Shown: piece by piece, positions 1,834 through 46,311 of the stretch
Layout: each line of letters starts with the position of its first letter
Numbering within the stretch: the first letter of the stretch is position 1
Source of the DNA: an uncultured bacterium
GTDB lineage: Bacteria > Deinococcota > Deinococci > Deinococcales > Trueperaceae
Direction of reading: 5' to 3'
Assembly: GCA_964561595.1 (NCBI GenBank)
Contig: CAZLQH010000003.1
Location: forward strand, 9,025 to 73,024
Length of the DNA stretch: 64,000 bases
Made by a program: the position numbers and the translations under genes
The notes under the pieces: model-generated
What the model was told of the DNA's origin: nothing
The model's input: only the letters and a program-made list of their open reading frames with translations
Database searches by the model: none

Positions 1834-2466
1834 TCAGGCGTCCCACTCGAGGATCAGCAGCACCAGCCCCTCGCGCACGTCGACGACCAGCCGGTCGTGC
1901 GCGACGTTGGAGAGGCCCAGCCCCACGCCGCGCGGAAGCTCCGCATCGGTCAGCGGGTAGTCGGCCCCGGCCACGTCGACCCGTGACCGCTCGGCGACCG
2001 ACAGCAGGCTGAACACGGTGCCGTGCGGGACCTCGCCTGCGAAGCGGGCGCCCGCGGGCAGCGGGTAGGCGTCGTGGATCCCGTCCAGGAGAGACATCTC
2101 CACGCCCTGCTCGGCGTAGCGGGCGGCGATCCAGGCGGTCGCCAGCGTCTGGTCGAAGCGCCCCCCGAACGCGCCGATCACCCGGACGCTGTCCGCGCCG
2201 CGTGCCAGCGCCGCCTCGATCGCGAGCTCGAGGTCGAGGGCGTCCTTGTCGCGCGGGTGCTGCTCGGTCGGAACGTCGGGCCACACCTGCAGATCCTCGT
2301 CGCGGACCGAGTCCAGATCGCCCACCAGCAGGTCCGGCACGACCCCCAGCGGGATCGCGTGACGGAGCCCGCCGTCCGCCGCGACCACCAGGTCCGCCTC
2401 GCCGACCTTGCGCAGCAGGCGCGGGCTGGGACGCAACGGACCGCCCGCCAGCACCAGCGCGATCAC
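1834..2466 (-). CDS. thiN: Thiamine pyrophosphokinase
   Basis: Part of ORF 1834..2586(-). VIALVLAGGP...VVAADGGL...LVGDLDS...KDALDLELAI pattern of TPK catalytic plus thiamine-binding domains. The GTG start at 2466 overlaps the TGA of the upstream ABC ATPase (GTGA, 2463-2466). Confidence 0.85.
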   Translation of the reverse strand: MIALVLAGGPLRPSPRLLRKVGEADLVVAADGGLRHAIPLGVVPDLLVGDLDSVRDEDLQVWPDVPTEQHPRDKDALDLELAIEAALARGADSVRVIGAFGGRFDQTLATAWIAARYAEQGVEMSLLDGIHDAYPLPAGARFAGEVPHGTVFSLLSVAERSRVDVAGADYPLTDAELPRGVGLGLSNVAHDRLVVDVREGLVLLILEWDA

Positions 2467-3464
2467 CCCTCCACCTCGAGCACCGTCCAGGCGTCGTCGG
2501 GAACGCGCAGCCGGATCGTGTCTCCCGGCTCCGGGGGTTCCCGGAGCTCGCGGGGACGGGCCTGCCAGCGAACGCTCAGCCCCCACTGGGGCGAGGTCAG
2601 CGCCAGCTCCAGATCGGTCCCGACGCGGTGCACGCGCTGGACCTCGAACACGTGACCGTCCGGATCGGGACGCAGCCGCTCGACCCGCAGCAACGTCGTG
2701 CCCGCGAACCCCAGCTCCTTCGCCTGGCCGGCCGGGATCAGCTCGCGCAGGCCCAGGAAGCGCGCCATCCAGGCGCTGCGCGGCGCCTCGACCAGCTCGT
2801 CCGGCGTGCCCTCCTGCACGATCCGGCCGTCGTGCATCACCGCGACCCGGTCGGCCAGCGCGAACGCCTCGTTCTGATCGTGCGTGACGTGGATCGCCTG
2901 GACGTCCAGCTCGCCCAGCAGCTCGGCGAGCTCGTCCATCAGCTCGTCGCGCAGCGTCCGGTCCAGGTTGCTCAGCGGCTCGTCGAGCAGCAGCAGCGCA
3001 GGGCGCGGAGCCAGCGCACGGGCCAGCGCGACCCGCTGCTGCTGACCGCCCGACAGCGCCTGCGGGCGACGCCGCTCGAGACCCGTCAGCCCCATGACGT
3101 CCAGCAGCTCGCGGACCCTCGCCTCGCGTTCGTTCCGCGACCAGCCACGCTCCACCAGGCCGAACGCGACGTTGTCCTTCAGCGACAGGTGCGGGAACAG
3201 CGCGTAGTCCTGGAACACCATGCCGACGCCCCGTCGCTGCGGCGGAACGCCGCTCAGGTCACGCCCGTCCATGCGCAGCGATCCGGCGTCGGGCGGCTCG
3301 AGGCCGGCCACCACGCGGAGCAGCGTCGATTTCCCGCACCCCGAGGGGCCCAGGAGCGCCAGCGTCCGACCGGGCGGAACGACCAGATCGACGCCGTCGA
3401 CGGCGCGCACCTCGCCGTAGTGCCGTGCCACGCCGGACAGTTCGAGAGCCACGCGCGGCATCAT
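2463..3464 (-). CDS. thiQ: ABC transporter ATP-binding protein (thiamine importer, ThiQ-like, with C-terminal TOBE-like extension)
   Basis: Inside ORF 2463..4163(-). Start at ATG 3464 (MMPRVALELSGV...). Walker A GPSGCGKST, signature LSGGQQQRV, Walker B LLLLDEP, H-loop HVTHD. The thiamine assignment rests on operon context (thiP-like permease, TPK, riboswitch-controlled thiB). Confidence 0.85.
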   Translation of the reverse strand: MMPRVALELSGVARHYGEVRAVDGVDLVVPPGRTLALLGPSGCGKSTLLRVVAGLEPPDAGSLRMDGRDLSGVPPQRRGVGMVFQDYALFPHLSLKDNVAFGLVERGWSRNEREARVRELLDVMGLTGLERRRPQALSGGQQQRVALARALAPRPALLLLDEPLSNLDRTLRDELMDELAELLGELDVQAIHVTHDQNEAFALADRVAVMHDGRIVQEGTPDELVEAPRSAWMARFLGLRELIPAGQAKELGFAGTTLLRVERLRPDPDGHVFEVQRVHRVGTDLELALTSPQWGLSVRWQARPRELREPPEPGDTIRLRVPDDAWTVLEVEG

Positions 3465-3505
3465 ACCCGCGGCCGTACCGCGTCTCGACCCCGATCTTCG
3501 GGGGC

Positions 3506-5089
3506 TCAGATCTCGCCCGGACCGCCCAGCCGGTCCAGCAGCGCCATGATCATCGCCGTCAGCGCCATCAGGAGCAGCGCCAGCACCAGCGCCGCCGCGT
3601 AGTTCTCGGCGCCCGGCCGCCCCAGGCGCTGGTAGATCGCGATCGGCAGCGTCGCCAGCTCGGGCCGGCTCAGCACCAGCGCCGCGCCGAACTCGCCCAG
3701 CGACACCGCCACCGCGAAGCCGGCGCCGCCGATCAGGCCCGGTACCAGCGCCGGCAGGTCCACCCGCAGCGCGCGCCGCCACGGTCCCGCGCCCAGCACC
3801 GCCGCGGCTGCGGAGCGCGAGGGGGGGATTCCGCGCAGCGACGGCAGCACCGCCCGCGTCACGAACGGCGTTCCGATCAGCGCGTGCGCCAGCGCCAAGC
3901 CCCAGAACGTGCCGGTCAGCGCCGGCCAGGCAAGCAGGAAGCCCAGTCCCAGGGTGACGGCGCTGGTCGCCAGCGGCAGCAGGCTGGCCCGGTCCAGGAA
4001 GCGCCAGTCGGCCCGCACCACCGCGTACGCCAGCGCCGTGCCCACCACGGTCGCGACCAGGCCCGAGGCGCCCGCGAAGCGGAGCGAGTTCCAGGTGGCG
4101 TCCCAGGCGCTCACGACGCCCAGCAGACCGCTGGGCGCGAACGCCGCGCGCCAACCGATCCACGAGATCCCCTCCGCCCCGGGCGGCACGACCGAGCGGA
4201 TCGCGAGCGCGACCAGCGGCGCCGCCGTCAGCAGCGCCGGCGGCGCCAGCGTCAGGGCCAGCAGCCAGCGGCCCCCCCGGCCCGGTCGCGGGAGCGGACC
4301 CGCGCCGCCCAGCGGGACCGCGGCGCGGGCCTGCAGCGCCGTGTAGACGCCGCCCGCGGCCATCGCCACGACCAGCTGCAGCAGCGCGAGCGCCGCGGCG
4401 GTATCGAGCCGCAGCAGCCGCGCCACGCTGCGGTAGATCTCGACCTCCAGGGTGTCCCAGGCGCCGCCGGGCGCCAGGATCAGGATCACCCCGAACGAGG
4501 TGAAGCAGAACACGAACACCAACGCCGCCGCCGCCAGGATCGCCGGCGCCGCCAGGGGAAGCGTGACGCGCAGCGTCGTCCTGAGCGGCCCCGCGCCCAA
4601 TGTCGCCGCGGCGTCGCGAAGCCGGGGCGCGGCCGACTCCAGGAAGCCGCCCACCATCCGCACGACGACCGCATGGTTGTAGAACACGTGCGCCAGCAGC
4701 ACCAGCGTCAGGGTGTCCATCAGGTCGACCCCCAGCGCCCCGCCCGGTCCCAGCAGCGCCAGGAATCCCGCCCCCGCCACGACGGACGGCATCACGAACG
4801 GCACGGTGAACAGCGCCCGCAAGATCCGCTTGCCGGGGAACGACCAGCGCGCGAACGCCAGCGCGCCGGGAAGCCCGATCGCGACGGTGAGCACCGTCGA
4901 GAGCGTCGCCTGGAGCAGCGTGAGGCCCAGCCGCTCGCGCAGGAACGGGTCGGTGGCCAGCTCGCGCGCCGTGGCCAGCGGCTCCGCGCCGAGGCCGCGG
5001 GCCACCACGGCGACGAGGGGCACGATCAGGAGAAGCGCCAGGAAGAGCGACGCGAGGAGACCGCCGAGCCGGCCGGGGGAGAGGCGCAC
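3506..5089 (-). CDS. thiP: ABC transporter permease with duplicated transmembrane domains (ThiP-like)
   Basis: ORF 3506..5116(-), 536 aa in the track, about 12 predicted TM segments in two repeats as in ThiP/FbpB-type permeases. I place the start at GTG 5089 because a TAGACT -10 hexamer (minus strand, 5102..5097) sits 7 nt upstream. ATG 5116 is the longest-ORF alternative. Confidence 0.85.
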   Translation of the reverse strand: MRLSPGRLGGLLASLFLALLLIVPLVAVVARGLGAEPLATARELATDPFLRERLGLTLLQATLSTVLTVAIGLPGALAFARWSFPGKRILRALFTVPFVMPSVVAGAGFLALLGPGGALGVDLMDTLTLVLLAHVFYNHAVVVRMVGGFLESAAPRLRDAAATLGAGPLRTTLRVTLPLAAPAILAAAALVFVFCFTSFGVILILAPGGAWDTLEVEIYRSVARLLRLDTAAALALLQLVVAMAAGGVYTALQARAAVPLGGAGPLPRPGRGGRWLLALTLAPPALLTAAPLVALAIRSVVPPGAEGISWIGWRAAFAPSGLLGVVSAWDATWNSLRFAGASGLVATVVGTALAYAVVRADWRFLDRASLLPLATSAVTLGLGFLLAWPALTGTFWGLALAHALIGTPFVTRAVLPSLRGIPPSRSAAAAVLGAGPWRRALRVDLPALVPGLIGGAGFAVAVSLGEFGAALVLSRPELATLPIAIYQRLGRPGAENYAAALVLALLLMALTAMIMALLDRLGGPGEI

Positions 5090-5096
5090 GCCCACG

Positions 5097-5116
5097 AGTC
5101 TAGCGCCAGGTAGCAT
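5097..5116. promoter_or_regulatory. Back-to-back -10 hexamers for two divergent leaderless genes
   Basis: TAGACT on the minus strand (5102..5097) lies 7 nt before thiP GTG 5089. TAGCAT on the plus strand (5111..5116) lies 5 nt before AEC GTG 5122. No Shine-Dalgarno sequence precedes either start. Confidence 0.45.
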
Positions 5117-6049: not shown

Positions 6050-9000
6050 GTGCCCGCCATGACGGATCCGCCCCGCCACGACGGCGCAGCGCTCCTGGAC
6101 GTGATCGCACGCGTCGAGCGGGCGATCGCCTCCCGCCAGCATCCGGTCAGCGGCCTGCTCCCCGCATCGACCGCCGTGACCCGTCACGGCGACTACACCC
6201 ACGCCTGGGTACGCGACGGGGTGTACAGCATCCTGGCCGTCTGGGGCGCGGCGCGCGCCGCGCGTTCGGCCGGCCTGGAGGGCGGCCGCGTGCGCGAGCT
6301 CGAGCAGCGCACCATCGCGCTCATGCGTGGCCTGCTCCGTTCGATGATGGCGCAGGCCGATCGCGTCGAGCGCTTCAAGCAGAGTCAGGACCCCCTCGAC
6401 GCGCTCCACGCCAAGATCGATACCGCGTCCGGGACTCCGGTGGTTGCCGACGACGCGTGGGGGCATCTCCAGCTGGACGCCACCGGCCTGTTCCTGCTCA
6501 CGCTGGCGCAGATGACCGCCGGCGGCCTGCCGGTGGTGGCGACGCGCGACGAGGTGGCGTTCGTGCAGAACCTCGTCTGGTACGTGGCGCGCGCCCACAG
6601 GACGCCCGACTACGGCATCTGGGAGCGCGGCGACAAGACGAATCACGGACGTCCCGAGATCAACGCCAGCTCCGTGGCGCTGTGCAAGGCGGCGCTCGAG
6701 GCGCTCGACGGCCTGGACCTGTTCGGGGCCGAGGGGTCGCAAGCGTCCGTGATCCACGTGCTGCCCGACGACGTCGCCCGCGCCCGCGTCACGCTGGCTG
6801 CCCTCCTCCCGCGCGAGTCCGCCTCGAAGGAGACGGACGCCGCGCTGCTGAGCGCCGTGGGCTGGCCCGCCTTCGCCGTCGACGATCCCGAGCTCGTGGA
6901 GCGGACCCGGGAGACGATCGTTCGCGTCCTGGACGGTCGCTATGGGATGAAGCGCTTCCTGCGGGACGGCCACCAGACGCCGCTCGAGGAGGAGGGGCGC
7001 CTGCACTACGAGCCCGAGGAGCTCGCACGGTTCGCGGGGATCGAGTCCGAGTGGCCGCTGTTCCACGCCTTCGCCGGTCTCGAGGCCGCGTTCCGTGGCG
7101 ACTGGGACGCGGCGCGCGCCTACCGCGAGCGGCTGACGCGGGCGGCGGTTCCCGTTGGGGACGATGCGGTTCTCCCCGAGCTGTACCGCGTGCCCGAAGG
7201 CGACGTGGACGCCGAGCGCGCCGCGCCGGGATCCGCCGTCCGCGTCCCCGGCGAGAACGTTCCGCTGGTCTGGGCCGAGAGCCTGCGGGCGTTGCTGGAC
7301 CTTCTGCTCGCAGGCGCGATCCGCACCGACCAGCTCGACCCGCTGGGGCGTCACCGCCGGCGCGCGCCCGGGGGCGCGCGGGTGCAGGTCGCCGTCGTCG
7401 CCGAGGACGAGGCGGTCCGCGCGCAGCTGCACGAGCGGGGCGTGCCGGCCGAGCGGATGGGCGCCCTGGGCGACGCCCGCCTGGTCCGCGCCGCCGACGT
7501 GTCGACCGCGTACGAGCGGGTCGGGCGCCACGACGGTCTGGGGCTCACGGGACGGCCGCGGACGCGGCTGGGGAGCTTGGCGAGCGCCCGCCTCTATCGC
7601 CTGGCCGGGGCGCGCCTGGCGGTGGTGCCCGCGTTCCTGGACCGGGCCGAGTTCTACCTGGCGCTCGATCCGGACGACCTGCTACAGCGCCTGCGCGCCG
7701 AGCTCCGCTACCTGTCGCGGCACTGGACGCTGCCGGGGCGCCCCACCCTCGTTCTCTGGGTACCCCGCGACCTCCTGCAGCACGGCGAGGCGGAGCTGCT
7801 CCGCTTCGTGCGCGAGGCCGCAGCCGGCGAGGTGGACGGCGTGCCGGTCGTGCTCGGACCGCTGTCGCGCCTCGCGTTGTCGGCCAACGAGGAGCGGATC
7901 GACGACCTCGACGACTGGCGACCCGCCGAACGGCCCCTGGACGACGCCCAGCGGCGCGGGCGCGTGGCCCTGACGCCGACGGGTCCGAACGTGCCGCTGT
8001 CGCCCGAGGAGGAGCTCGCGATCGAGCTCACCGCCGACACGGACGAGCTCAGCGCGCGCCTCCGCGCCTCGACGAACGCGTACGAGCAGGCCGAGCTGCT
8101 CACCGAGCTGAGCGAGCGCCAGGGGACCGACGCGGTCCTCTGGCGCGGCGACGACGGTCCCGTCACGGTCGCGGCGCTGCTGAGCGAGCTGTACGACCGG
8201 GCCGGCGATCTGCGGCTGTGGGGCGTCGTCCGGCTGGGCGCCGCCCTGCTCGAGATGGTCGAGCCCACCCTGTCCGACGCGGCCGCGGACCTGCTGGCCG
8301 CCCAGAAGCGCCTGCTGGTGGGGAAGGCGTACGCCGACGAGGCCACCGTCGACCGCCCGCTCCCCCAAGCCGAGCTGCTCGGCCTGATCCGGCGGTTCTG
8401 CCGCGAGGACGTCCGCGACCGGGTGCTGACCCAGGAGCTGATCGTCGCGCTGGCCGGCCTGCTGCGCGAGGATCCGGAACGGTTCGAGGGCATCCGCACG
8501 TTGCGCCTGGGTCACCTGACGCTGCTGCTGGCCTCCGAGCTGGCGCACGAGGCGGACGTCCCGCAGGACGAGGGATACGAGCGCCTGGCGTCGCTGCCGC
8601 CCAGCGAGGTCCGTCGGCGGCTGCGTCGCCTGCTGCACGGCGACGAGCGGCGGTTCGACCGGCTGCTCGAGCGGCAGGAGCGTCTCGCGGCGCGCCTGCC
8701 CAGCGGCGCCGCGCCGTGGGAGAGCGTGACGACCGTGGGCGACGACGGTCCGGCCGCGCCGCCTGCCGCGGGCTGGTGGCGATGGCGCCAGCGCGAGGGA
8801 GCGCTGGCCCGCCTGCCCGACGGCTTCGCCCGGCGCGCATGGGACCTGCTACGGCGCTGCGACGGCCTGGTGATCGGCGACAAGCTCGAGCGCCGCAACC
8901 GCCTGGACAGCCGCCGCATCACGGGCGAGAGCACCGCGGGCGAGCTCAACTTCGCGCTGCGCGTCGAGCACCTGCTCCACAAGATCCCCAGCCCCGAGTA

Positions 9001-9271
9001 CCGCCAGGTGACGGTCGAGGCGATCCTGGAGCTGTCGCGACTGTTCGCCGCGTCGCCCGATCTTCGCGTGCGGGGCTCGCTGGTGATGGACGTCGTGGTC
9101 GGCCACGCGGTCCGGCGGGCGTGGCTCGGGGCCGGTCACGACGTCGCGGCGTACGAGCGCGACAAGGCGGCCGCCTGGGCCGCGTTCTACGACCTTCCGC
9201 CGGTCGCCACGCGGGAGGCGGTGCGCTCGGCGTTCGCCTCCCTGCTCGAGACGGGCGAGGCGGCCGACTAG
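6050..9271 (+). CDS. Phosphorylase kinase alpha/beta regulatory-subunit-like protein (glucoamylase/GH15-like N-terminal domain plus PHK-type C-terminal region)
   Basis: ORF 6050..9271(+), 1073 aa (GTG 6050; ATG 6059 is an alternative). Blocks recalled from animal PHKA/PHKB recur: HAWVRDGVYSILAVWG, WGHLQLDATG, GIWERGDKTN, INASSV, AALEALDGLDLFG, SVIHVL, GRYGMKRFLRDG, EWPLF, LPELYRVP, and C-terminally LNFALRVEHLLHKIPSPEYRQVTVEAILEL. Confidence 0.85.
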   Translation: MPAMTDPPRHDGAALLDVIARVERAIASRQHPVSGLLPASTAVTRHGDYTHAWVRDGVYSILAVWGAARAARSAGLEGGRVRELEQRTIALMRGLLRSMMAQADRVERFKQSQDPLDALHAKIDTASGTPVVADDAWGHLQLDATGLFLLTLAQMTAGGLPVVATRDEVAFVQNLVWYVARAHRTPDYGIWERGDKTNHGRPEINASSVALCKAALEALDGLDLFGAEGSQASVIHVLPDDVARARVTLAALLPRESASKETDAALLSAVGWPAFAVDDPELVERTRETIVRVLDGRYGMKRFLRDGHQTPLEEEGRLHYEPEELARFAGIESEWPLFHAFAGLEAAFRGDWDAARAYRERLTRAAVPVGDDAVLPELYRVPEGDVDAERAAPGSAVRVPGENVPLVWAESLRALLDLLLAGAIRTDQLDPLGRHRRRAPGGARVQVAVVAEDEAVRAQLHERGVPAERMGALGDARLVRAADVSTAYERVGRHDGLGLTGRPRTRLGSLASARLYRLAGARLAVVPAFLDRAEFYLALDPDDLLQRLRAELRYLSRHWTLPGRPTLVLWVPRDLLQHGEAELLRFVREAAAGEVDGVPVVLGPLSRLALSANEERIDDLDDWRPAERPLDDAQRRGRVALTPTGPNVPLSPEEELAIELTADTDELSARLRASTNAYEQAELLTELSERQGTDAVLWRGDDGPVTVAALLSELYDRAGDLRLWGVVRLGAALLEMVEPTLSDAAADLLAAQKRLLVGKAYADEATVDRPLPQAELLGLIRRFCREDVRDRVLTQELIVALAGLLREDPERFEGIRTLRLGHLTLLLASELAHEADVPQDEGYERLASLPPSEVRRRLRRLLHGDERRFDRLLERQERLAARLPSGAAPWESVTTVGDDGPAAPPAAGWWRWRQREGALARLPDGFARRAWDLLRRCDGLVIGDKLERRNRLDSRRITGESTAGELNFALRVEHLLHKIPSPEYRQVTVEAILELSRLFAASPDLRVRGSLVMDVVVGHAVRRAWLGAGHDVAAYERDKAAAWAAFYDLPPVATREAVRSAFASLLETGEAAD

Positions 9272-10374
9272 CGGACGTCGTCCGGCGACCTGCCCTGACG
9301 GACCACCTGCGTCCACTGCTGCAGCCAGCGGGCCTGCTGGGCCTCGATGCGTGCAGCGTCCAGCGACGCGGTCTGGGCGTCGTCGGGACGGGCCGCGAAG
9401 CGCTCGAACGCCTCGGGCAGCGCGACGTCCTCGCGGACGGGGTAGACGAACATCGAGGTGGGCACGGCGGCTTGCACCTCCTCCGAGAGGAGGAAGTCGA
9501 CCAGCTCGCGCGCCGCGTCGGGGTCCGGGCTGCCGGCCAGCACGCCCGCCGCTTCGATCTGGCGCCAGGCGCAGCCGTCGCACAGCAGGTTCCGGGTCGG
9601 CGACGCGTCGAGCTCCTCCTCCGCGAAGATCACTTCCGCCGCGGGACTGGTGGCGTACGACAGCACGATGGGCCGGTCGCCGCCGTAGCGGCTGAACGCC
9701 GTGTAGTACGCGTCGGACCAGCCCGACGTCACCCGCAGGTCGGCGTCGCGGAGGTCCGCCCAGTAGTCCAGCCAGTCGTACGAGCCGCCCTCGCCGAAGC
9801 GCGCGACGGTGACCAGCAGGAACGCCAGTCCGGGGCTGCTGGTCGCCGGGTCGCTGACCACGGTGGCGCCCGCGAACGTCTGGGTCGTCAGGTCGGTGAG
9901 GTCGGTCGGTTCCGGGAGCCCGCGCTCCTCGAGGCCGGCGACGTCGTAGTTGAACGTCACGTAGCCGACCGTGACGGGGGTGAGCAGCTCGCCGGCGAAC
10001 CGGAGCTCGTCCGGAACGGCGTCCACGCCGCTCGCGACGTACGGCTCGAACAGGTCGCGGGCGCCCTCGCGCGCGATCAGCGCGTCGTCGATGCCGAACA
10101 GCACGTCGGCGACGGGACGGCCCGAGGTCAGCAGCGCGCGGTTCACGACCTCGCCCGCGTCGCCGCCGGACACGACGCGGAGCTCCAGGTCGTGCTCGCT
10201 CTCGAAGGTCGCGACGAGCTCCTCGGGCAGGGTGAACGAGTCGTGCGTCAGCAGCGTGACGTCCTGGGCGGACGCCGTCGCGAGCGTGGCGAGGAGCGCC
10301 AACGCCCACGGAACGAGACGGCCGACGACGCGGCCGGTCGCGATGGAGGAGAGGGTTCGAACGGTGCGGCTCAT
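9268..10374 (-). CDS. thiB: Thiamine ABC transporter substrate-binding protein
   Basis: ORF 9268..10392(-). Start at ATG 10374 (MSRTVRTL..., signal peptide ending ATASAQ), preceded by GGAAGGG. Blocks resemble E. coli TbpA: DPATSSPGLAFLL, GWSDAY, IVLSYATSPA, VYPV. A TPP riboswitch lies immediately upstream. Confidence 0.9.
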   Translation of the reverse strand: MSRTVRTLSSIATGRVVGRLVPWALALLATLATASAQDVTLLTHDSFTLPEELVATFESEHDLELRVVSGGDAGEVVNRALLTSGRPVADVLFGIDDALIAREGARDLFEPYVASGVDAVPDELRFAGELLTPVTVGYVTFNYDVAGLEERGLPEPTDLTDLTTQTFAGATVVSDPATSSPGLAFLLVTVARFGEGGSYDWLDYWADLRDADLRVTSGWSDAYYTAFSRYGGDRPIVLSYATSPAAEVIFAEEELDASPTRNLLCDGCAWRQIEAAGVLAGSPDPDAARELVDFLLSEEVQAAVPTSMFVYPVREDVALPEAFERFAARPDDAQTASLDAARIEAQQARWLQQWTQVVRQGRSPDDVR

Positions 10375-10404
10375 GGGGTTCCCTTCCGTCACCAGGGAAG
10401 GGGA

Positions 10405-10505
10405 TTATGCGTCGGTCACGCTTCCTACGCCCGTACGAACGGGTTCAGGTTCGAGGGTCTGTTCTCAGCCCGTACGTGTCGGGCACCCCTGGCGACGTGC
10501 CTCAG
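10405..10505 (-). promoter_or_regulatory. TPP (THI-box) riboswitch
   Basis: Minus-strand RNA reads CACGUCGCCAGGGGUGCCCGACACGUACGGGCUGAGAACAGACCCUCGAACCUGAACCCGUUCGUACGGGCGUAGGAAGCGUG. It contains the conserved GGGGUGC, CUGAGA, ACCC, ACCUGA and GCGUAGGAA elements, with a CACG/CGUG P1 stem. Downstream, the hairpin CCCUUCC-N8-GGAAGGG can sequester the SD of thiB. Confidence 0.85.
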
Positions 10506-10543: not shown

Positions 10544-11773
10544 TCAGTCGCCGTGCGCCATGCGGGTCGTCGTCCGCGCGGTCGGGCGCAGCCCGGCGGC
10601 GATCACGATCGTGACGACGAACAGCGCGGCGGCCATCGCGAACACCGCGCGGTAGCCCAGCTCGCCGCCGCCCAGCAGCGTGGCCAGGCCGACGCCGACC
10701 AGGGGCGCGACGGCGCGGCTGGCGGACACGACGGCGTTGTCCAGCCCGAACGCCGAGCCGACCTCGGTCTGGACGGTGACGACGTTCAACAGCGCCGACA
10801 GCGACGGCATCAAGCCGCCGACGGCGACGCCGGCCAATCCGTTCAGCAGCAGCAGCTGCGCCCCGGTCTCGACGAACGCCATCGGCAGATAGAACGCGGC
10901 CGCGGCCACGGCCGATCCGATCAGCACGGTGCGGTGCCCGATCCGGTCGCCCAGGTTCCCCAGCGCGATGGCCGAGACGGTGCTGGTCGCGGCCGCGATC
11001 CCGATCACCAGGCCGGTGAACGTCGCGGTCCGGGCTTCGCTGGCCAGCAGGATCGGGATGAAGAGCGGCAGGATCGGAACCAGCACCCCTCGCCCGAGCC
11101 AGGCGGCGAAGCGGGCCCAGAACGTGCGGGCCACCCCGGGGGTCCGGAGGATGTGGCTCCAGTCCTTCGCCATTCCCGACAGCTTTCGTGCGTTCTCGGG
11201 AGGCGTGAACGCTTCGCGCACGCCGAACTGCACCAGGATCCCGCCCGCCGTCAGGAGCACGGCGGTGATGACGAACGCCGCGCGGTAGCCGACCGAGTCG
11301 GCCAGGACGCCGCCCAGCACCGGGCCCAGCGCCACGCCGCTGGTCATCGCCGTCTGGAGCGCGCCCAGCGCGAAGCCGGACCGCTCTCGCGGCGCGACGG
11401 AGGCGACCAGCGCGTTTCCCGCCGAGACGATGCCCGTCATCACCCCCTGCAGCGCACGCAGCAGGACGAGCTCCTCGGCGCTGCGCACGAACGCCATCGC
11501 CAGCACGACGGCGGCGCCGCCGAACAGGGCGCGCTGCACCATCGGTTTCCGTCCCACGCGGTCCGCGACCGCTCCCCAGACGGGGGACGCCAGCATCATC
11601 GTGATCGCCTGCGAGCTGAACACCGCGCCGGCCAGGAACACCAGGTCGAGGCCCCACGCGCTGCCCAGCGACGCGACGTAGTTGGGCAGGAACGGGAAGA
11701 TCATCGAGAAGCCGATCGCCGACAGCAGCTGGGCGACGAACATGATGATCAGGATGCGTTTCCAGTCGTTCAC
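10544..11773 (-). CDS. MFS transporter (drug/H+ antiporter-like, 12 TM)
   Basis: ORF 10544..11773(-), 409 aa, GTG start with GGAG 4 nt upstream. MNDWKRILIIMFVAQLLSAIGFSMIFPFLPNY... and a GAVADRVGRKP loop motif typical of the MFS. Confidence 0.85.
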   Translation of the reverse strand: MNDWKRILIIMFVAQLLSAIGFSMIFPFLPNYVASLGSAWGLDLVFLAGAVFSSQAITMMLASPVWGAVADRVGRKPMVQRALFGGAAVVLAMAFVRSAEELVLLRALQGVMTGIVSAGNALVASVAPRERSGFALGALQTAMTSGVALGPVLGGVLADSVGYRAAFVITAVLLTAGGILVQFGVREAFTPPENARKLSGMAKDWSHILRTPGVARTFWARFAAWLGRGVLVPILPLFIPILLASEARTATFTGLVIGIAAATSTVSAIALGNLGDRIGHRTVLIGSAVAAAAFYLPMAFVETGAQLLLLNGLAGVAVGGLMPSLSALLNVVTVQTEVGSAFGLDNAVVSASRAVAPLVGVGLATLLGGGELGYRAVFAMAAALFVVTIVIAAGLRPTARTTTRMAHGD

Positions 11774-11977
11774 GGGGCTCCGGTTCGAGGGCTCGACGGG
11801 GCGACGCTGCGCGATCCGCGTCGTCGGCGGCCCGCACCGTACGCCCGTCCACGCGCGCTACGGGTCGCGTCCGCCACCAACGCGGCGCGCTTGCGCCCGC
11901 GCCGCCGCGGCCTCGACCGCTTCCGAGGCCGGCGCAGGGGGACAATGCTCCGCCGCACGATCCGCTACGCTCGGGGC

Positions 11978-14137
11978 ATGTCCGGCACCCACGTGTTCTT
12001 CATCGCTCCGACCGGTCCCGGCTCGGGCCTCACGACCGTCAGCCTGGGCCTGGTTCGGGCCCTCGATCGGAAGGGCCTCCGCGTCGCGTTCTTCAAGCCG
12101 ATCCGCCAGCCGGGTCGCGAGGACGGCCGCGAGCTCTCCACCCACTTCGTCGCCGAGACCAGCGACATCGATCCGATCGAGCCGTTCTCCTGGCCGTACG
12201 CCGAGGAGCTGATGACGTCGGGTCGCGAGGGGCAGCTGCTCGAGGAGGTCGTCGGACGCGCTCAGGAGCGCCTCGAGGCCGCCGAGGTGGACGTGCTGAT
12301 CGTCGAGGGGCTGATCGCGACCGCCGACCATCCGGAGCTGGACACGCTGAACGAGCGCGTCGCGACCGCGTTCGACGCGGAGGTGGTGCTGGTGGGCTCG
12401 ATCGGCCGCGGCACCCCCGAAAGCCTGTCCGAGCGGATCGAGATGATGGCCCAGCACTTCGGCGGCGTGGACGACAGTCGCCTGCTGGGCGCGATCGTGA
12501 ACAAGCTCAACGCGCCCGCGCAGGAGGTCACGGCCGCCGCGCGGACGGCACGCACGGAGCCCGAGGAGGTGCTGGACGAGGTCGCCGTGCAGCGCCGCAT
12601 GGGCGTGTTCGACGACGACTTCCGCCTGATCGGCGCGATCCCGTGGGATCCGAGCCTCGTCTCGCCGCGCACGCTGGACGTCGCGCGCCAGCTGGAGGCG
12701 CGCATCCTGAACGAAGGGGAGCTGAAGCGTCGGCGACTGGTCGACGTGTCGGTGGTGGCCCGCACGGTGGCGAACATGACGCACCGGTTGCGACCCGGAG
12801 CGCTGATCATCACGCCAGGCGACCGGGACGACGTGATCCTCGCGGTCGCGATGGCGTCGCTGAACGGCGTTCCGCTGGCCGGCCTGGTGCTGACCGGCGG
12901 CATCGAGCCGGACGAGCGGATCATGAAGCTGTGCGAGCGCGCCGTGGCGGACGGCCTGCCGGTGCTGCTCGTCGAGTCCGACAGCTACGTGAGCGCCGCC
13001 CAGGCGGCCGCGATCAACCTCGAGGTCCCGCCGGACGACCTGGAGCGCATCGAGCGCGTGATGGACGAGGTCGCCTCGCACCTGGACGTCGAGTGGCTGG
13101 CCGCGCGCTGCGCGACCGACCGCGAGCCGCGGCTGTCGCCACCCGCGTTCATGCATCGGCTGGTCACGCGGGCGCGCCAGGCGGACAAGCGCATCGTGCT
13201 GCCCGAGGGCGCCGAGCCGCGGACGGTCCGCGCTGCGGTCCGCAGCCACGAGCGCGGCATCGCGCGCTGCGTGCTGATCGCGAAACCGGACGAAGTCCGA
13301 CGGGTCGCCGAGACGCAAGGCCTGGAGCTGCCCGACGAGCTCGAGATCCTGAACCCGACGGTGCATCGCCGCGAGCGCTACGTCGCGCCCATGGTCGAGC
13401 TGCGCAAGCACAAGGGCATGACGGAGCCGGTCGCTCGGCAGCAGCTCGAGGACACCGTGGTGCTGGGGACGATGATGCTGGCGCACGGCGAGGTCGACGG
13501 CCTCGTCTCGGGCGCGGTCCACACGACGGCGAACACCGTTCGGCCCGCCATGCAGCTGATCAAGACCACGCCCGAGGCCAAGCTGATCAGCTCGGTGTTC
13601 TTCATGTGCCTGCCCGATCAGGTGCTCGTCTACGGCGACTGCGCGATCAACCCCGATCCGAACGCCGAGGAGCTGGCCGACATCGCCGTGCAGTCGGCCG
13701 ACTCGGCCGTCTACTTCGGGATCGAGCCGCGGGTGGCGATGATCAGCTACTCGACCGGGGCGTCGGGCGAGGGAAGCGACGTCGAGAAGGTGCGCGAGGC
13801 GACCCGCATCGCTCAGGAGCGGCGTCCCGACTTCCTCATCGACGGCCCCCTCCAGTACGACGCGGCGTCGGTCGCGTCGGTAGCGGAGACGAAGGCGCCG
13901 GACAGCCCGGTCGCCGGCCGGGCCACCGTGCTGATCTTCCCGGACCTGAACACGGGGAACACGACGTACAAGGCGGTCCAGCGAAGCGCGAACGTGGTCT
14001 CGATCGGTCCGATGCTGCAGGGCCTGCGGCGTCCGGTCAACGACCTGTCGCGCGGCGCGCTGGTGGACGACATCGTCTACACGATCGCCCTGACCGCGAT
14101 CCAAGCCAGGCAGGCCGAGGAACGCGAAGCCGGCTGA
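11978..14137 (+). CDS. pta: Phosphate acetyltransferase, long form (N-terminal P-loop-like/DRTGG region plus PTA domain)
   Basis: C-terminal 719 codons of ORF 10553..14137(+). Start at ATG 11978 (MSGTHVFFIAPTGPGSGLTTVSLGL...), 6 nt after a TACGCT -10 hexamer. Length and layout match E. coli-type Pta (about 714 aa). C-terminal motifs: SGAVHTTANTVRPA, YGDCAINPDP. Confidence 0.9.
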   Translation: MSGTHVFFIAPTGPGSGLTTVSLGLVRALDRKGLRVAFFKPIRQPGREDGRELSTHFVAETSDIDPIEPFSWPYAEELMTSGREGQLLEEVVGRAQERLEAAEVDVLIVEGLIATADHPELDTLNERVATAFDAEVVLVGSIGRGTPESLSERIEMMAQHFGGVDDSRLLGAIVNKLNAPAQEVTAAARTARTEPEEVLDEVAVQRRMGVFDDDFRLIGAIPWDPSLVSPRTLDVARQLEARILNEGELKRRRLVDVSVVARTVANMTHRLRPGALIITPGDRDDVILAVAMASLNGVPLAGLVLTGGIEPDERIMKLCERAVADGLPVLLVESDSYVSAAQAAAINLEVPPDDLERIERVMDEVASHLDVEWLAARCATDREPRLSPPAFMHRLVTRARQADKRIVLPEGAEPRTVRAAVRSHERGIARCVLIAKPDEVRRVAETQGLELPDELEILNPTVHRRERYVAPMVELRKHKGMTEPVARQQLEDTVVLGTMMLAHGEVDGLVSGAVHTTANTVRPAMQLIKTTPEAKLISSVFFMCLPDQVLVYGDCAINPDPNAEELADIAVQSADSAVYFGIEPRVAMISYSTGASGEGSDVEKVREATRIAQERRPDFLIDGPLQYDAASVASVAETKAPDSPVAGRATVLIFPDLNTGNTTYKAVQRSANVVSIGPMLQGLRRPVNDLSRGALVDDIVYTIALTAIQARQAEEREAG

Positions 14138-14369
14138 CCCGGCACGATCGGCGGACGCCGCTGCGCCGCGCTGTCGAGCGCCTGCTGCCGCCGGGTCGCG
14201 CGACGACAGCGAGCCGCGATCGAGCCCCTTCGCCGGGACCGTCCTCATTCGCCGTGACGTGTTTCGCTGCGCATGCGCGACAACGCGTACGAGATGCGCA
14301 CGTCGCCGCGTTCGCAGCTCACGAAGCTCGTGCTGGACGCGAGGCTCGTTTCCACGTGCGCATCTTCGC

Positions 14370-14397
14370 CCTGGATTCGCGCATGTGCGAATCCAGG
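14370..14397. repeat. Perfect inverted repeat CCTGGATTCGC-GCATGT-GCGAATCCAGG
   Basis: 11-bp arms with a 6-nt centre, in the middle of the 403-nt pta/mutS2 intergenic region. No U-tract follows on either strand, so it is not a classical intrinsic terminator. Confidence 0.6.
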
Positions 14398-14540
14398 CTT
14401 CGGGAAAGACGATCGATCGGCGCGCCCGCGACGCGGGCGTGGCGCCGACCCGGCGCTCCGACCGTCCCTTGGATCGGCGCACCGACCGCTGCCGTCCGGG
14501 CTGCGGTCCCGTCGGCCCCTCGGCGGTATGCTGATCGGCC

Positions 14541-16865
14541 GTGACCATCGCCGCAGCGCTCCTCGACAAGCTGGCCTACCCACGCGTGGCGACCGCGCTG
14601 GCGGAACGTGCCGCGACGCGGCTGGGCGTCGAGCGGGCGGAAGCGCTCGCACCGCTGGAAGACCGCGCCGAGGTCGGCCGGCGCCTCGACCGGGTCGACG
14701 AGATCCTGGCCTCGAGCGAGCTCCCCCTCGGCGGTATCGAGGACGTGCGGCCGTGGCTGGCGCAGGCGCGCGACGGCCGGATGCTCGAGGGGAGCGAGCT
14801 GCTTTCGGTCGCCTACACGCTGGACGGCACGGAGCGGCTGCGTCGCGCGGTGGCCGAGAGCGACCGTCCGGCGCTGAACGCGCTCGCCGCGGAGATGGGC
14901 AGCTTCGAGGGCTGGCTCAGGATGGTGCGCGAGCGGCTGGACGGCGACGGCGAGGTGCGCGACGACGCGACGCCCAAGCTCCGCGAGATCCGGCGGCGGC
15001 TGCGGCCGCTGCGCGGCCGGATCCGCGACCGCATGCACAAGCTGCTCGAGCAGTACGCCGACGCGGTCCAGGATCCGATCGTCACGCTGCGGCGCGACCG
15101 CTACGTGATTCCGATCCGGGCGTCGGCGCAGTCGCGCGTGCCCGGCATCGCGATCGACGCCAGCGACTCGGGACGCACGGTGTTCCTGGAGCCGCAGTCC
15201 GTGGTGGCCATGAACAACGAGCTCGCGCTGCTCGAGTTCGAGGAGCGCGACGAGGTGCGCCGCATCCTGCTCGAGCTGGGCCGCCGCATCGCGGACCATC
15301 CCGAGGTGGACACCACGCTGGAGCGGGTCGCCGAGCTGGACCTCGCGAACGCGTCCGCCCGCCTGGCGGAGGACTGGGGCCTGCATCGCTGCGAGCCCGG
15401 CGACGCGGACGGCCTCGTGGCGCTCCCTGCCGCGCGTCACCCGCTGGTCGAGGCGTGCGTCCCGAACGACCTGGACCTGGACGCCGAGCGTCGGCTGCTG
15501 ATCGTCACCGGTCCGAACGCGGGTGGCAAGACGGTGCTGCTCAAGACCTTGGGGCTGGCGGTCGCGATGGCGCAGAGCGGCCTGGGCGTCGCGGCGGGCG
15601 ATCCGGCCACGCCGCCGCGGCTCCCGTGGTTCGCGACGGTGCTTGCCGACATCGGCGACGAGCAGTCGATCGAGGCGTCGTTGTCGACCTACGCCGGGCA
15701 TCTCACGAACCTCGCGAGGATCGTGCGCGAGGCCGACCCCGCTACGCTGGTGCTCATCGACGAGCTGGGCTCGGGAACCGATCCGGACGAGGGGGCGGCG
15801 CTGTCGCAGGCGATCCTCGAGGAGGTGCTCGCGACCGGGGCGCGCGGTCTGGTGACGACCCACCTCGCGCCGCTCAAGGTGTTCGCGTCGGACACGGCCG
15901 GCGTGCGGAACGCCGCGATGCGGTTCGACGTCGAGCGCCTGACGCCCACCTTCCACATGGCCGTCGGGCAGCCGGGACGCAGCTACGCGCTCGCGATCGC
16001 CGAGCGGCTGGGACTGAGGCGCGACGTGCTGGACCGGGCGTCGCGGATCCTGGGCCCGGAGGGCGAGCGTCTGGAGCGGCTGCTGGCGACGCTCGAGCGG
16101 CAGCGCGAGGAGCTGGGGGAGCGCCTGGCCGAGACGGAGAGCGCGCGCGAGGCCGCGAGGGACGAGGCCGACCTGCTGCGCACCGAGCTGGACCGACTAC
16201 GCCGCCGCGAGGACGACCTGATGGCCGAGGCGGCGGCGCGCGCGGACGCGAAGCTGCAAGAAACGCTGCAGCGGGCCACGCGGCTGACGAAGACCGCTCG
16301 CAGCGAGGAGGGCGAGGGACGCTCGCAGGCGCTCGAGGAGATCCGTCGACTACGGGCGGAGGCGCAGAAGCGGGCCAAGCCGTCGCGGCCGGCGTCGCAG
16401 GCGCCCAGCGAGCCCGCCTCGCGACTGCGTCCGGGAACGCGGGTGCGCGTGCCGGCCTACGACGCCGAAGGACCGATCGTGGAGCTGCGCGGCGACACGG
16501 TCCAGGTGCAGCTGGGCCTTCTGCGGGTGGAGGCCGGCACCGACGAGGTCGAGCCGGTCGCTCCGCCCAGCCGTCCGAAAGGCTCCGGCGGCCAGCCGGC
16601 GGCGAGCTTCGGCGTCGCGTTCGACGAGGAGCTGAACGTTCGTGGCGACCGGGTCGAGGAGGCGCTCGAGAAGATCCGCGACTTCGTGCTCGAGGCCCAG
16701 GCGATGAAGATCGGCAAGATCCGGATCCTCCACGGCAAGGGCACCGGCGCGTTGCGGGACGCCGTCCGCAGCTACCTCAAGGACGAGAAGCGGGTCGAGC
16801 GGTTCGAGGACGCCGTTCCGTACGAGGGCGGCCACGGCGTGACCGTGGCGTACCTCGACGTCTGA
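14541..16865 (+). CDS. mutS2: Endonuclease MutS2 (MutS domain III/V ATPase plus C-terminal Smr domain)
   Basis: ORF 14541..16865(+), 774 aa, GTG start 8 nt after a TATGCT hexamer. Walker A GPNAGGKT, DELGSGTDP, coiled-coil linker, and Smr end LNVRGDRVEEA...ILHGKGTGALR. Confidence 0.9.
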   Translation: MTIAAALLDKLAYPRVATALAERAATRLGVERAEALAPLEDRAEVGRRLDRVDEILASSELPLGGIEDVRPWLAQARDGRMLEGSELLSVAYTLDGTERLRRAVAESDRPALNALAAEMGSFEGWLRMVRERLDGDGEVRDDATPKLREIRRRLRPLRGRIRDRMHKLLEQYADAVQDPIVTLRRDRYVIPIRASAQSRVPGIAIDASDSGRTVFLEPQSVVAMNNELALLEFEERDEVRRILLELGRRIADHPEVDTTLERVAELDLANASARLAEDWGLHRCEPGDADGLVALPAARHPLVEACVPNDLDLDAERRLLIVTGPNAGGKTVLLKTLGLAVAMAQSGLGVAAGDPATPPRLPWFATVLADIGDEQSIEASLSTYAGHLTNLARIVREADPATLVLIDELGSGTDPDEGAALSQAILEEVLATGARGLVTTHLAPLKVFASDTAGVRNAAMRFDVERLTPTFHMAVGQPGRSYALAIAERLGLRRDVLDRASRILGPEGERLERLLATLERQREELGERLAETESAREAARDEADLLRTELDRLRRREDDLMAEAAARADAKLQETLQRATRLTKTARSEEGEGRSQALEEIRRLRAEAQKRAKPSRPASQAPSEPASRLRPGTRVRVPAYDAEGPIVELRGDTVQVQLGLLRVEAGTDEVEPVAPPSRPKGSGGQPAASFGVAFDEELNVRGDRVEEALEKIRDFVLEAQAMKIGKIRILHGKGTGALRDAVRSYLKDEKRVERFEDAVPYEGGHGVTVAYLDV

Positions 16866-19161: not shown

Positions 19162-20316
19162 TCAGAACCGCAGCCCGCCGTCCGTGAACGGCGGCAGCGC
19201 CTCGAGCCCGAACACCTGCGCCGCGATGGCGTAGATCTCGGCCGGCTCGAGGCCCTGGCCGAGGTACCTCTCGTCGCCACGCCACAGCTCCACGTGCGGA
19301 TGCGGCCCGTCCTCCGTGCCCTGGACGGCCTCCGAGGTGCCCGAGTTGCCGGTGAACCCGATCACCGCTCCCTGCATCACGGGCGCGCCGGCCACGATGC
19401 CCTCCGCGACGCCGGAAAGGTGGGCGTAGCGCGTCACGAACCCACCCGCGTGGCGGATCCAGACCTGTCGCCCACGAAGCGCGTCGAGCACCTCCGGCGG
19501 CGTGTCGAGCGACCCCACGGCGCTGTCGATCAGGGCGTCGTACCCCGCCTGGTCCAGCTCGCGGTAGTCCACGTCCGCGCGGATCACCTCGCCCGACGCG
19601 GCGGCGCGTTGCGGCGTCCCGTACGCGATCTCGACACTGACCGTGCCGTCGTAGAAGTCGAACCCCTCGTGGGTGCCGTTGCGGTAGGCGCGCGGCGCGC
19701 CGGGCAGGTGGCTTGCCCGCGAGCTGATCGTGGCGCCGTCGATCGGGACCAGGTAGGCCGACGGCCAGCCGCGCGCGAACGCCTCGCCGCCCCGGAGCTC
19801 ACGAAGCGATGCGGGCCAGTCGGTCAGCTCCTCGAGTCGGGACCACAGGCCGCTGCCGCGCACGCCGGCGTTCCCTGCGGCCAGCTCCAGCGCCCTTCGG
19901 CCTTCGGCGTCGGCGACGTGCGGGTCCGAGCCGGCGTTCAGCAACAGGAGCGTGGTCGACGCGGTGGGCGCGGCGTCGGCTGCGAACATCAGCGCCGTCC
20001 AGCCGGTCTCGGACCGGGCGTGGACGTCGGCGCCCGCCGCGAGGAGGACACGGAGGGCGTCGTCGTGCCCCCCGGCGGCGGCCAGCATCAGCGCCGTCCG
20101 GCCGAACGGGTCGGCCCCGTCGAGCGGTGCGCCGCCGTCCAGGGCGAGTCGCGCTGCGGCGGGATCGCCGCTCTCGGCGGCGTCGAGCAGCACCGCCACC
20201 GGCGCCGCCTCCGCCGCGGGCGGTGACGCGCCGGGGAGGCCCACGACGCCGAAGCTCCAGAGGGCGGCGAACGCCGCGACGGAGAGGACCAGAACGATCG
20301 CGAGAGCTCGAAGCAT
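19162..20316 (-). CDS. Membrane-anchored or secreted ankyrin-repeat / M23 (LytM-type) metallopeptidase fusion protein
   Basis: ORF 19162..20316(-), 384 aa. N-terminal hydrophobic segment. Ankyrin repeats: GRTALMLAAAGGHDDALRVLLAAGADVHAR, GWTALMFAA. M23 motifs HEGFD (HxxxD) and GPHPHVE (HxH). A TAGCAT hexamer lies 6 nt upstream of the ATG. Confidence 0.85.
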   Translation of the reverse strand: MLRALAIVLVLSVAAFAALWSFGVVGLPGASPPAAEAAPVAVLLDAAESGDPAAARLALDGGAPLDGADPFGRTALMLAAAGGHDDALRVLLAAGADVHARSETGWTALMFAADAAPTASTTLLLLNAGSDPHVADAEGRRALELAAGNAGVRGSGLWSRLEELTDWPASLRELRGGEAFARGWPSAYLVPIDGATISSRASHLPGAPRAYRNGTHEGFDFYDGTVSVEIAYGTPQRAAASGEVIRADVDYRELDQAGYDALIDSAVGSLDTPPEVLDALRGRQVWIRHAGGFVTRYAHLSGVAEGIVAGAPVMQGAVIGFTGNSGTSEAVQGTEDGPHPHVELWRGDERYLGQGLEPAEIYAIAAQVFGLEALPPFTDGGLRF

Positions 20317-20415
20317 GCCGAGATGCTACCGCGGCTCCACGAGCCTCCGATGAGCCGCCCGGGCCCGCGTCGTGGGCCGCAGCAGGGGGCTACGAGGGTG
20401 ACGTATGGTGGGCGG

Positions 20416-36852: not shown

Positions 36853-37440
36853 TCATGCGCCCAGTCCGCGCGGCTTCGTACGTAGCCGGTGGAACTCGCG
36901 CACGACGGCCTCGGGCGCGCCTGGGCCGATGCGCGCGACCAGGCCGTTGGCGGGATCGGCGCGCACCTCGGGGTCGCTGGTGGGCATCGGCTCCAGTCCG
37001 ACCTTGCCGTACAGGCGCTCCAGGCGGCGCTTGTACGCGAACGGTCCGAGGCCGGACCGGTCGAGGTCGTAGTGCCAGGCGTAGAGGGTGGCGAACACGA
37101 CCGTGCCGTCGTAGCGGCCGCCGGCGAACGCCCACTCGAGCATCCGCTCGGCGAGGTGCTCGCCACGGACGGCGGGCGCGACCTCGACGGCGCCGAGCTC
37201 GATCAGGCGACCGCTGCGGTCGTCGCCCCAGGTCTCGATCTCGCTGGGCGGGTGGAAGGTGACGTAGCCGACGGTACGCGTCGCGTCCTCGGCGACGACG
37301 ACGAGGCCGTGCGGGTCGGACGCGATGTCGATGAGCGCGAGGCGCTGCAGATCGGGCGGCCGGAACACGTCCAACGCGGGGTGAAGAGGAAGGGGAGGCG
37401 CGTCCGCGGTCAGCTCGCGGACGCGCGCTCCCGACGTCAT
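36853..37440 (-). CDS. acuA: Acetoin utilization protein AcuA (GNAT-type protein lysine acetyltransferase)
   Basis: Part of ORF 36853..37791(-). ATG 37440 overlaps the stop of the STAND gene (ATGA). Blocks shared with B. subtilis AcuA as I recall it: VGYVTF, LIELGAVEVAP..RG, DPEV..DPANGLVARIG, FHRLR. Confidence 0.85.
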   Translation of the reverse strand: MTSGARVRELTADAPPLPLHPALDVFRPPDLQRLALIDIASDPHGLVVVAEDATRTVGYVTFHPPSEIETWGDDRSGRLIELGAVEVAPAVRGEHLAERMLEWAFAGGRYDGTVVFATLYAWHYDLDRSGLGPFAYKRRLERLYGKVGLEPMPTSDPEVRADPANGLVARIGPGAPEAVVREFHRLRTKPRGLGA

Positions 37441-40619: not shown

Positions 40620-40796
40620 CTCCCTAGTCTATCGTGACCGGTAATCGGGTACACAATCTCGCAGACGGCGTGGGAGCGCTCGCGCCGCCGCTTTCGCAGC
40701 GCCGTCGCGCGCGGGTACACATCGCATCCAGCCGCCGCGGTCGTCCCGTCCCCGGGGCCACGGAACGGCGCGAGGGCCGGTGCTATGCTCCGCGCC

Positions 40797-46207: not shown

Positions 46208-46311
46208 GGGATTCCTTTCCGTCGAGATGAGGGAAGCGCCGTCCGGCGTCGGGCGAGGGCTGCGCGAGCGACGGCGTCTTGCGACGCTAGCACGCGTCCA
46301 TCACGAGATCG

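Follow-up and report, generated by a model that had tools for sequence, protein, structure and literature searches.

A phosphorylase kinase alpha/beta-like gene in a Deinococcota contig

We analysed a stretch of 64,000 nucleotides from an uncultured Deinococcota bacterium of the family Trueperaceae (assembly GCA_964561595.1, contig CAZLQH010000003.1, positions 9,025 to 73,024 of the forward strand; hereafter the window), concentrating on one gene whose product resembles the alpha and beta regulatory subunits of eukaryotic phosphorylase kinase (PhK; subunits PHKA and PHKB). An earlier reading of the letters without database searches (the sequence-only reading) had described an open reading frame (ORF) of 1073 aa here. 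The frame is present exactly as described and runs without interruption from a GTG codon to its stop (Table 1). A database protein of 100 % identity is 1070 aa long, and for that reason the ATG at 6059, which would give 1070 aa, is the likelier start. The GC content at third codon positions (GC3) is 0.93 and that at second positions (GC2) about 0.5, values shared by the other genes of the window (window GC 72.7 %), and the overall GC content of the gene, 73-76 %, is the same as that of its flanks. When the sequence was inspected by eye, without a predictor, no obvious N-terminal signal peptide was found.

Table 1. Positions of the phosphorylase kinase-like gene, its parts and its neighbours (window coordinates unless a locus is named)
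Feature	Position (nt)	Strand	Remarks
PhK alpha/beta-like gene	6050..9271	+	1073 aa from GTG 6050; stop TAG 9269-9271
D1, GH15-like (alpha/alpha)6 domain, aa 1-435	6050..7354	+	51 % identity with PHKA D1; Foldseek also matches 7c24, 9ju0, 6frv
Codon of E192 (W191-E-R-G), predicted general acid	6623..6625	+	aligned with PHKA E185
Codon of E377 (L-P-E-L-Y), predicted general base	7178..7180	+	aligned with PHKA E371; Lys in PHKB
D2-D4 region, aa ~436-833	7355..8548	+	collinear with PHKA 429-607 and 763-973
KPBB_C (Pfam PF19292) region, aa 834-1071	8549..9262	+	holds the PEYRQ block
AEC / Mem_trans transporter, 308 aa	5122..6048	+	directly upstream of the PhK-like gene; lineage-specific pairing
ThiB-like solute-binding protein	9268..10392	-	convergent with the PhK-like gene; stop codons overlap (CTAG 9268-9271)
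TPP riboswitch	10404..10500	-	precedes the solute-binding-protein gene
ABC permease	3506-5116	-	thiamine uptake cluster
ABC ATPase	2586-3500	-	thiamine uptake cluster
Thiamin pyrophosphokinase	1834-2586	-	thiamine uptake cluster
ABC exporter pair	L001 6320-9990; L085 3805-7601; L003, L009, L075 upstream of match		related loci

Homology to the alpha and beta subunits over the full length

Two Pfam families match the protein well above threshold, Glyco_hydro_15 (PF00723; E = 1e-65, 222.8 bits against a cut-off of 22) and KPBB_C (PF19292, 'Phosphorylase b kinase C-terminal domain'; E = 8.7e-74, 248.1 bits against a cut-off of 27), the latter aligned from aa 834 to 1071 with positions 2-236 of the 238-position profile. 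A phmmer search of all sequences in the Protein Data Bank (PDB) matched PHKA and PHKB as the sole proteins: muscle PHKA (8jfk_M) with E = 6.9e-196 over stretches 12-608, 664-873 and 907-1022, and PHKB (8jfk_B) with E = 1e-144 over 8-863 and 908-1057. The C-terminus alone still found PHKA (1.3e-20) and PHKB (2.2e-13), so the likeness is not limited to a generic fold of glycoside hydrolase family 15 (GH15) and extends significantly over the C-terminal 600 aa. An AlphaFold2 model built on an alignment of 23 homologues (mean pLDDT 81, pTM 0.80) was placed by Foldseek on PHKA and PHKB chains (8jfk, 8z5r, 8jfl) with E of about 1e-60 to 1e-51 and TMq of 0.65-0.70 over approximately 1080 columns. Taken together, the phmmer stretches and the Foldseek alignment give a collinear D1-D5 architecture over the full length, in which the D2-D4 region consists of a domain of mixed alpha/beta structure, a helical bundle and the first member of a related pair of helical domains. 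We conclude that sequence, Pfam architecture and predicted fold all mark the protein as a bacterial homologue of PhK alpha/beta along its full length, as had been claimed for it.

The conserved blocks that the sequence-only reading quoted for the N-terminal domain (WGHLQLDAT, GIWERGDKTN, AALEALD.LDLFG, GRYG..RFLRDG, EWPLF and LPELY.VP) are all present and are identical or near-identical in PHKA. The quoted C-terminal block is also real, although it belongs to PHKA (approximately residues 1110-1140) and not to PHKB, whose sequence differs there. Across D1 the identity of the window protein is 51 % to PHKA and 40 % to PHKB, compared with 47 % between PHKA and PHKB themselves and 62-64 % between PHKA and the cyanobacterial members.

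PHKA1 (PDB 8jfk, 8z5m) has the same order of D1-D5, the same two catalytic glutamates and GH15 motifs and the same PEYRQ block in D5, but is about 150 aa longer, its stretches ~608-762 and ~974-1050 being unmatched in the bacterial protein. PHKB is closer in size (1093 versus 1073 aa), keeps the domain order and superposes with TMq of 0.67-0.69, but its D1 is degenerate and its N-terminal extension of about 30 aa is missing from the bacterial protein, in which residues 1-37 of PHKB have no counterpart in the alignment. These alpha-specific stretches and the beta N-terminal extension carry the phosphorylation sites of PhK. Both eukaryotic subunits have a CaaX farnesylation motif, which is absent from the bacterial C-terminus (...LLETGEAAD, with no cysteine near the end). 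The sequence-only reading had seen no kinase or calmodulin-like partner gene, and likewise a scan of 30 ORFs, all but a few small ones of the window, found no member of the Pkinase or EF-hand families, nor does any kinase or calmodulin-like gene recur among the neighbours in approximately 170 related loci. Thus, by sequence and architecture the protein belongs to the PhK alpha/beta family, but because it has no gamma or delta partner nearby, no CaaX motif and no alpha- or beta-specific regulatory segments, it does not qualify functionally as a regulatory subunit of phosphorylase kinase.

The GH15 catalytic site

The 2024 cryo-EM study of human PhK described the active site of alpha D1 as apparently intact and of glucoamylase type, with Glu185 and Glu371 as the catalytic residues, and found the beta D1 to be without some of the catalytic residues (PMC10978961). 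In our pairwise alignment E185 of PHKA corresponds to E192 of the window protein (in GIWERG) and E371 to E377 (in LPELY), the match of these two residues to the classical GH15 pair being taken from the published superposition. Both are invariant in the 23 bacterial homologues (49-76 % identity), as are Y49, W53-V-R55-D56, W137-G-H-L-Q-x-D143, W191-E-R-G, R302-F-L-x-D306-G-H308 and P376-E377-L-Y379, and the same residues remained invariant when Gammaproteobacteria members of 39-47 % identity were added. PHKB, aligned in the same way, has K at the position of E377, Q at that of R55 and N at that of D143. The two catalytic glutamates, whose retention the sequence-only reading had left to be checked, are therefore in place, and the alignments show that the complete GH15 catalytic apparatus is retained. 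The motifs would correspond to the conserved regions of classical GH15 enzymes, which in Aspergillus niger glucoamylase are Y48..W52-x-R54-D55, W120-G-R-P-Q-R-D126, W178-E179-E180, R305..D309..Y311 and E400.

One position of the site sets the bacterial proteins apart. His308 (nt 6971-6973), in the R-F-L-x-D-G-H motif, is invariant in all aligned bacterial homologues, whereas PHKA and PHKB both have Tyr there. The equivalent Tyr of fungal glucoamylase presumably contacts the catalytic base, and for this reason the exchange may be a functional difference.

Comparison of folds leads to the same enzyme family. After the PhK chains, the best Foldseek matches of the model were GH15 enzymes, namely isomaltose glucohydrolase (7c24; E = 1.1e-07, TMt 0.70), dextran dextrinase (9ju0) and A. 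niger glucoamylase (6frv), so that the model has the (alpha/alpha)6 catalytic fold. Classical GH15 enzymes, a group in which we include the Kribbella isomaltose glucohydrolase (7c24/5Z3F), the enzymes 6frv and 9ju0 and the archaeal trehalase TreH1, thus share the fold and the two-glutamate inverting machinery but are without D2-D5. They were within reach of fold comparison only, since none of the classical GH15 structures in the PDB was recovered by the sequence, by a 23-sequence profile or by D1 alone at E <= 1-10. Bacterial glucoamylases bear in addition an N-terminal beta-sandwich domain, which the PhK-like protein does not have. At the level of predicted fold and catalytic residues, the database label 'GH15 family protein' is correct.

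Glucokinase and glycogen genes beside family members of other phyla

The clearest indications of function come from other phyla. Outside Cyanobacteria and Deinococcota, a glucokinase gene adjoins the PhK-like gene in 18 of 21 loci (one of the three exceptions has no flanking sequence), the codons frequently overlapping, and it does so in three gene orders. A 4.6-Mb Gammaproteobacteria genome has the first, zwf-pgl-edd-glk-eda-glgB-[PhK-like]-glgX-malQ, with the genes on a single strand and separated by 20-26 nt. In Reinekea and two other lineages the order is glk-[PhK-like]-malQ-malK, beside a HexR-type regulator. The third, [PhK-like]-glk, is found with a 4-nt overlap in a Halothiobacillaceae genome and in 13 metagenomic loci with glucokinase directly downstream, at spacings of -4 to +59 nt in most; we call these 13 Methylococcales because the protein of one locus among them, L133, has a 99 %-identical counterpart in Methylovulum. 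Methanotroph glucokinase has been assigned to the scavenging of free glucose from intracellular glycogen, in work that is silent on a neighbouring GH15 gene (PMC6406325, PMC8062543). The association with glucokinase, malQ, glgX and glgB points to a cytoplasmic alpha-glucosidase that would release glucose in glycogen or maltodextrin catabolism. The bacterial role, which the sequence-only reading had called unknown, can be narrowed accordingly by gene context in these phyla.

We consider it probable that the bacterial protein acts in the cytoplasm as an inverting exo-alpha-glucosidase and frees glucose from substrates derived from storage glucan, the product being captured by glucokinase, with D2-D5 serving assembly, control or polymer binding. 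It would be a stand-alone form, having no partner kinase, calmodulin, prenylation motif or phospho-regulatory loops. In the reaction, E192 would donate a proton to the glycosidic oxygen, with E377 activating water; the outer chains of glycogen, maltodextrins or short branch stubs would be cut to free glucose, and glucokinase would then phosphorylate the released glucose. The C-terminal D2-D5 may serve the assembly or control of D1, or the binding of polymer, instead of kinase docking.

Several observations weigh against this reading. The neighbours of the gene in the window and in cyanobacteria say nothing on sugars, and the context evidence is transferred from proteins that are only ~40-47 % identical. 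The one NCBIfam match to D1 is a weak one to the archaeal trehalase TreH1. Exo-glucosidase activity of the bacterial members is a prediction. The active-site loops of the model (41-48, 134-140, 189-201 and 299-329), although no other segments of the protein are as conserved, are where D1 is modelled with the least confidence (pLDDT below 50), possibly because an alignment of 23 sequences is shallow. Finally, the human PhK holoenzyme and its alpha-gamma-delta subcomplex gave no hydrolysis of maltose, isomaltose or glycogen (PMC10978961), from which it follows that the substrate of the family may not be a plain alpha-1,4 or alpha-1,6 glucan.

That last result also bears on a different account, in which the bacterial protein has no catalytic role and instead regulates glycogen metabolism or serves it as a scaffold, its GH15-like pocket binding a glucan or small ligand while D2-D5 hold or control a glycogen phosphorylase or kinase encoded elsewhere. 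PHKA has the same intact site yet hydrolyses none of the three substrates, acarbose binding activates PhK, and the authors of the structure state that the significance of the alpha GH15-like domain calls for further study (PMC10978961). Some 640 aa of conserved non-GH15 sequence are held in common with a known scaffold, and a context of glycogen genes suits a regulator as well as an enzyme. However, both catalytic glutamates and their flanking motifs are invariant across phyla, whereas PHKB, which is truly non-catalytic, has lost several of these residues; the tight coupling to glucokinase implies a product that is free glucose; and no kinase or calmodulin-like gene was found in the window ORFs scanned or recurs beside the gene in the related loci. 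We therefore regard a purely regulatory role as unlikely.

A second alternative keeps the hydrolytic activity and changes the substrate. The protein could be an active GH15 hydrolase of a small alpha-glucoside, trehalose or another compatible solute, acting in solute turnover after osmotic or desiccation stress. The TreH1 match (E = 2.5e-07 to 8.5e-06), the only one in NCBIfam, speaks for the idea; that it lies far below the cut-off for that family (25-30 bits versus 820) tells against it. The nearest solved GH15 enzyme, isomaltose glucohydrolase 7c24, is a disaccharide hydrolase, trehalose is not among the substrates on which PHKA was found inactive, and adjacency to glucokinase would suit equally. 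Many named carriers of the family belong to desiccation- or salt-tolerant taxa: Trueperaceae, Nostoc, Microcoleus, Leptolyngbya, Reinekea and Halothiobacillaceae. The carbohydrate genes found next to the family are, on the other hand, malQ, glgX, glgB and malK and not genes of trehalose or solute synthesis, and a small-glucoside hydrolase seems to us improbable, leaving glucose release from storage-glucan substrates as the preferred function.

Family size, spread and origin

The family is large. A word-indexed search returned at least 5,863 database proteins at E <= 1e-5, and all of the 120 matches listed (120/120) contain both PF00723 and PF19292 in a length of 1050-1130 aa. Many carry the name 'phosphorylase kinase alpha/beta subunit' at JGI, the NCBI name is 'glycoside hydrolase family 15 protein', and one record is titled 'Phosphorylase kinase alphabeta [Candidatus Methylobacter favarea]'. 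When only aa 440-1073, outside the GH15 domain, were searched against 1.84 billion representatives, 706 clusters (50 % identity) matched, and for 156 of these E was 1e-30 or lower. Scanned at one genome per species, at least 589 species genomes carry the family, the best 80 of which are Cyanobacteria and Trueperaceae/Deinococcota, and further members were found in Reinekea, Halothiobacillaceae and Methylococcales. The nearest named homologues of the window protein are those of Trueperaceae, at 57 % identity; together with MutS2 and the futalosine-pathway protein MqnC, they suggest that the host is Deinococcota-like. Full-text searching of the literature found no paper on bacterial PhK alpha/beta homologues. 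The family is thus known and labelled in databases and is experimentally uncharacterised, and the window gene is an ordinary further member of it; with thousands of bacterial homologues already deposited under the PhK alpha/beta name, its recognition in this sequence is not a discovery.

Bacteria and mammals share an unusually high identity in D1 (51-64 %), a feature that might suggest recent transfer of the gene from a eukaryote, or a contaminant in the assembly. Other evidence argues the other way. Its GC content and GC3 are those of the surroundings, the ORF is uninterrupted, synteny is kept in relatives of 53-93 % identity, and the number of bacterial species that carry the family is large. 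In a neighbour-joining tree of D1 the bacterial sequences form phylum-level clades, and PHKA pairs with PHKB in 96 of 100 replicates. A plasmid search gave no match to the protein. Recent transfer or a mobile element was consequently rejected, on normal composition and the want of a plasmid match, and we give next to no credence to either a eukaryotic source or contamination.

The same tree, which contains two eukaryotic sequences and no outgroup, attaches PHKA and PHKB beside or inside the cyanobacteria in only about 57 of 100 replicates. It is conceivable, at a little under an even chance in our estimation, that the PhK alpha/beta scaffold descends from the bacterial proteins and that these are still active, as glucose-releasing enzymes of storage-glucan turnover. 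Eukaryotes would have gained the gene a single time, possibly from a donor resembling a cyanobacterium, duplicated it and turned it into a platform on which the gamma kinase sits. If the bacterial protein is indeed an active glucosidase, then in eukaryotes alpha would be a recruited copy with the active site kept, and beta a copy with the active site lost.

Neighbourhood in the window and in related genomes

The two plus-strand genes, AEC and PhK-like, look to be placed inside an apparent thiamine uptake cluster. The 4.1 kb that they occupy part its riboswitch and thiB-like half from the half with permease, ATPase and pyrophosphokinase, and the divergent starts at 5116 and 5122 are only 5 nt apart. 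The sequence-only reading had made the AEC-family transporter the tight partner of the PhK-like gene, 2 nt upstream. The two are indeed adjacent, with 1 nt between the end of the AEC gene and GTG 6050, or 10 nt if the start is ATG 6059, but the pairing is not conserved. An orthologue at 93 % identity has the same layout as the window; at 76 %, the AEC and PhK-like genes are separated by two ABC-exporter genes; in a 56 % relative and in Trueperaceae the exporter pair is present and the AEC gene absent; and two 53 % relatives have an unrelated upstream region (rnpA-yidC-jag). Since the pairing is limited to the closest relatives, and Trueperaceae and cyanobacteria have no AEC gene there, we rejected the transporter as a functional partner.

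The convergent thiB-like gene, by comparison, is kept in all of these relatives for which downstream sequence is available, down to 53 % identity (L001, L002, L003, L005, L009 and L083-L085), and no other neighbour is shared by all of the Deinococcota-like relatives. Of 6 loci scanned for a TPP riboswitch, 3 gave a match. The exporter pair (ABC_membrane and ABC_tran, ~610-640 aa each) is absent from the window; in Trueperaceae and lineages related to them it immediately precedes the PhK-like gene. Cyanobacteria show synteny that is restricted to lineages and has no theme related to sugars (80 genome loci, mostly cyanobacterial), their neighbouring genes including a histidine kinase, MgtE, a WecB/TagA-type transferase and GAPDH.

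Other observations in the window

Downstream of the thiamine genes, at approximately 11900-14137 on the plus strand, no ORF passed our first GC3 filter. GC content by codon position shows a plus-strand gene in the frame of the ORF at 10553-14137, and comparison of its gene order with that in L001 and L085 identifies it as a phosphate acetyltransferase of the long form (AAA_26-DRTGG-PTA_PTB). A 903-aa minus-strand ORF at 11858-14569 was rejected as spurious. Three further minus-strand genes stood out. A 387-aa protein (19162-20325) combines ankyrin repeats with a Peptidase_M23 domain, to our knowledge an uncommon combination in bacteria; a 1063-aa protein (37437-40628) has coding-type composition and a weak AAA_16 match only; and an 856-aa protein (43730-46300), also of coding-type composition, has no Pfam match.

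Implications

The GH15-like domains of PhK alpha and beta were recognised about twenty years ago. The wider interest of our analysis lies in the bacterial family and not in the window gene itself. Because the site is invariant, kinase partners are absent and several lineages wire the gene to glucokinase and glycogen metabolism, the bacterial relatives are the obvious place to learn the role of this active site. If they are still-active glucose-releasing enzymes, then a bacterial orthologue would make it possible to look for the substrate of the so far 'silent' human PHKA site in a simple system of one subunit. Bacterial members may also supply the source so far missing for the 'free glucose from glycogen' invoked in studies of methanotrophs, and the family may add an unrecognised hydrolytic route feeding glucokinase in the glycogen catabolism of cyanobacteria, methanotrophs and Deinococcota.

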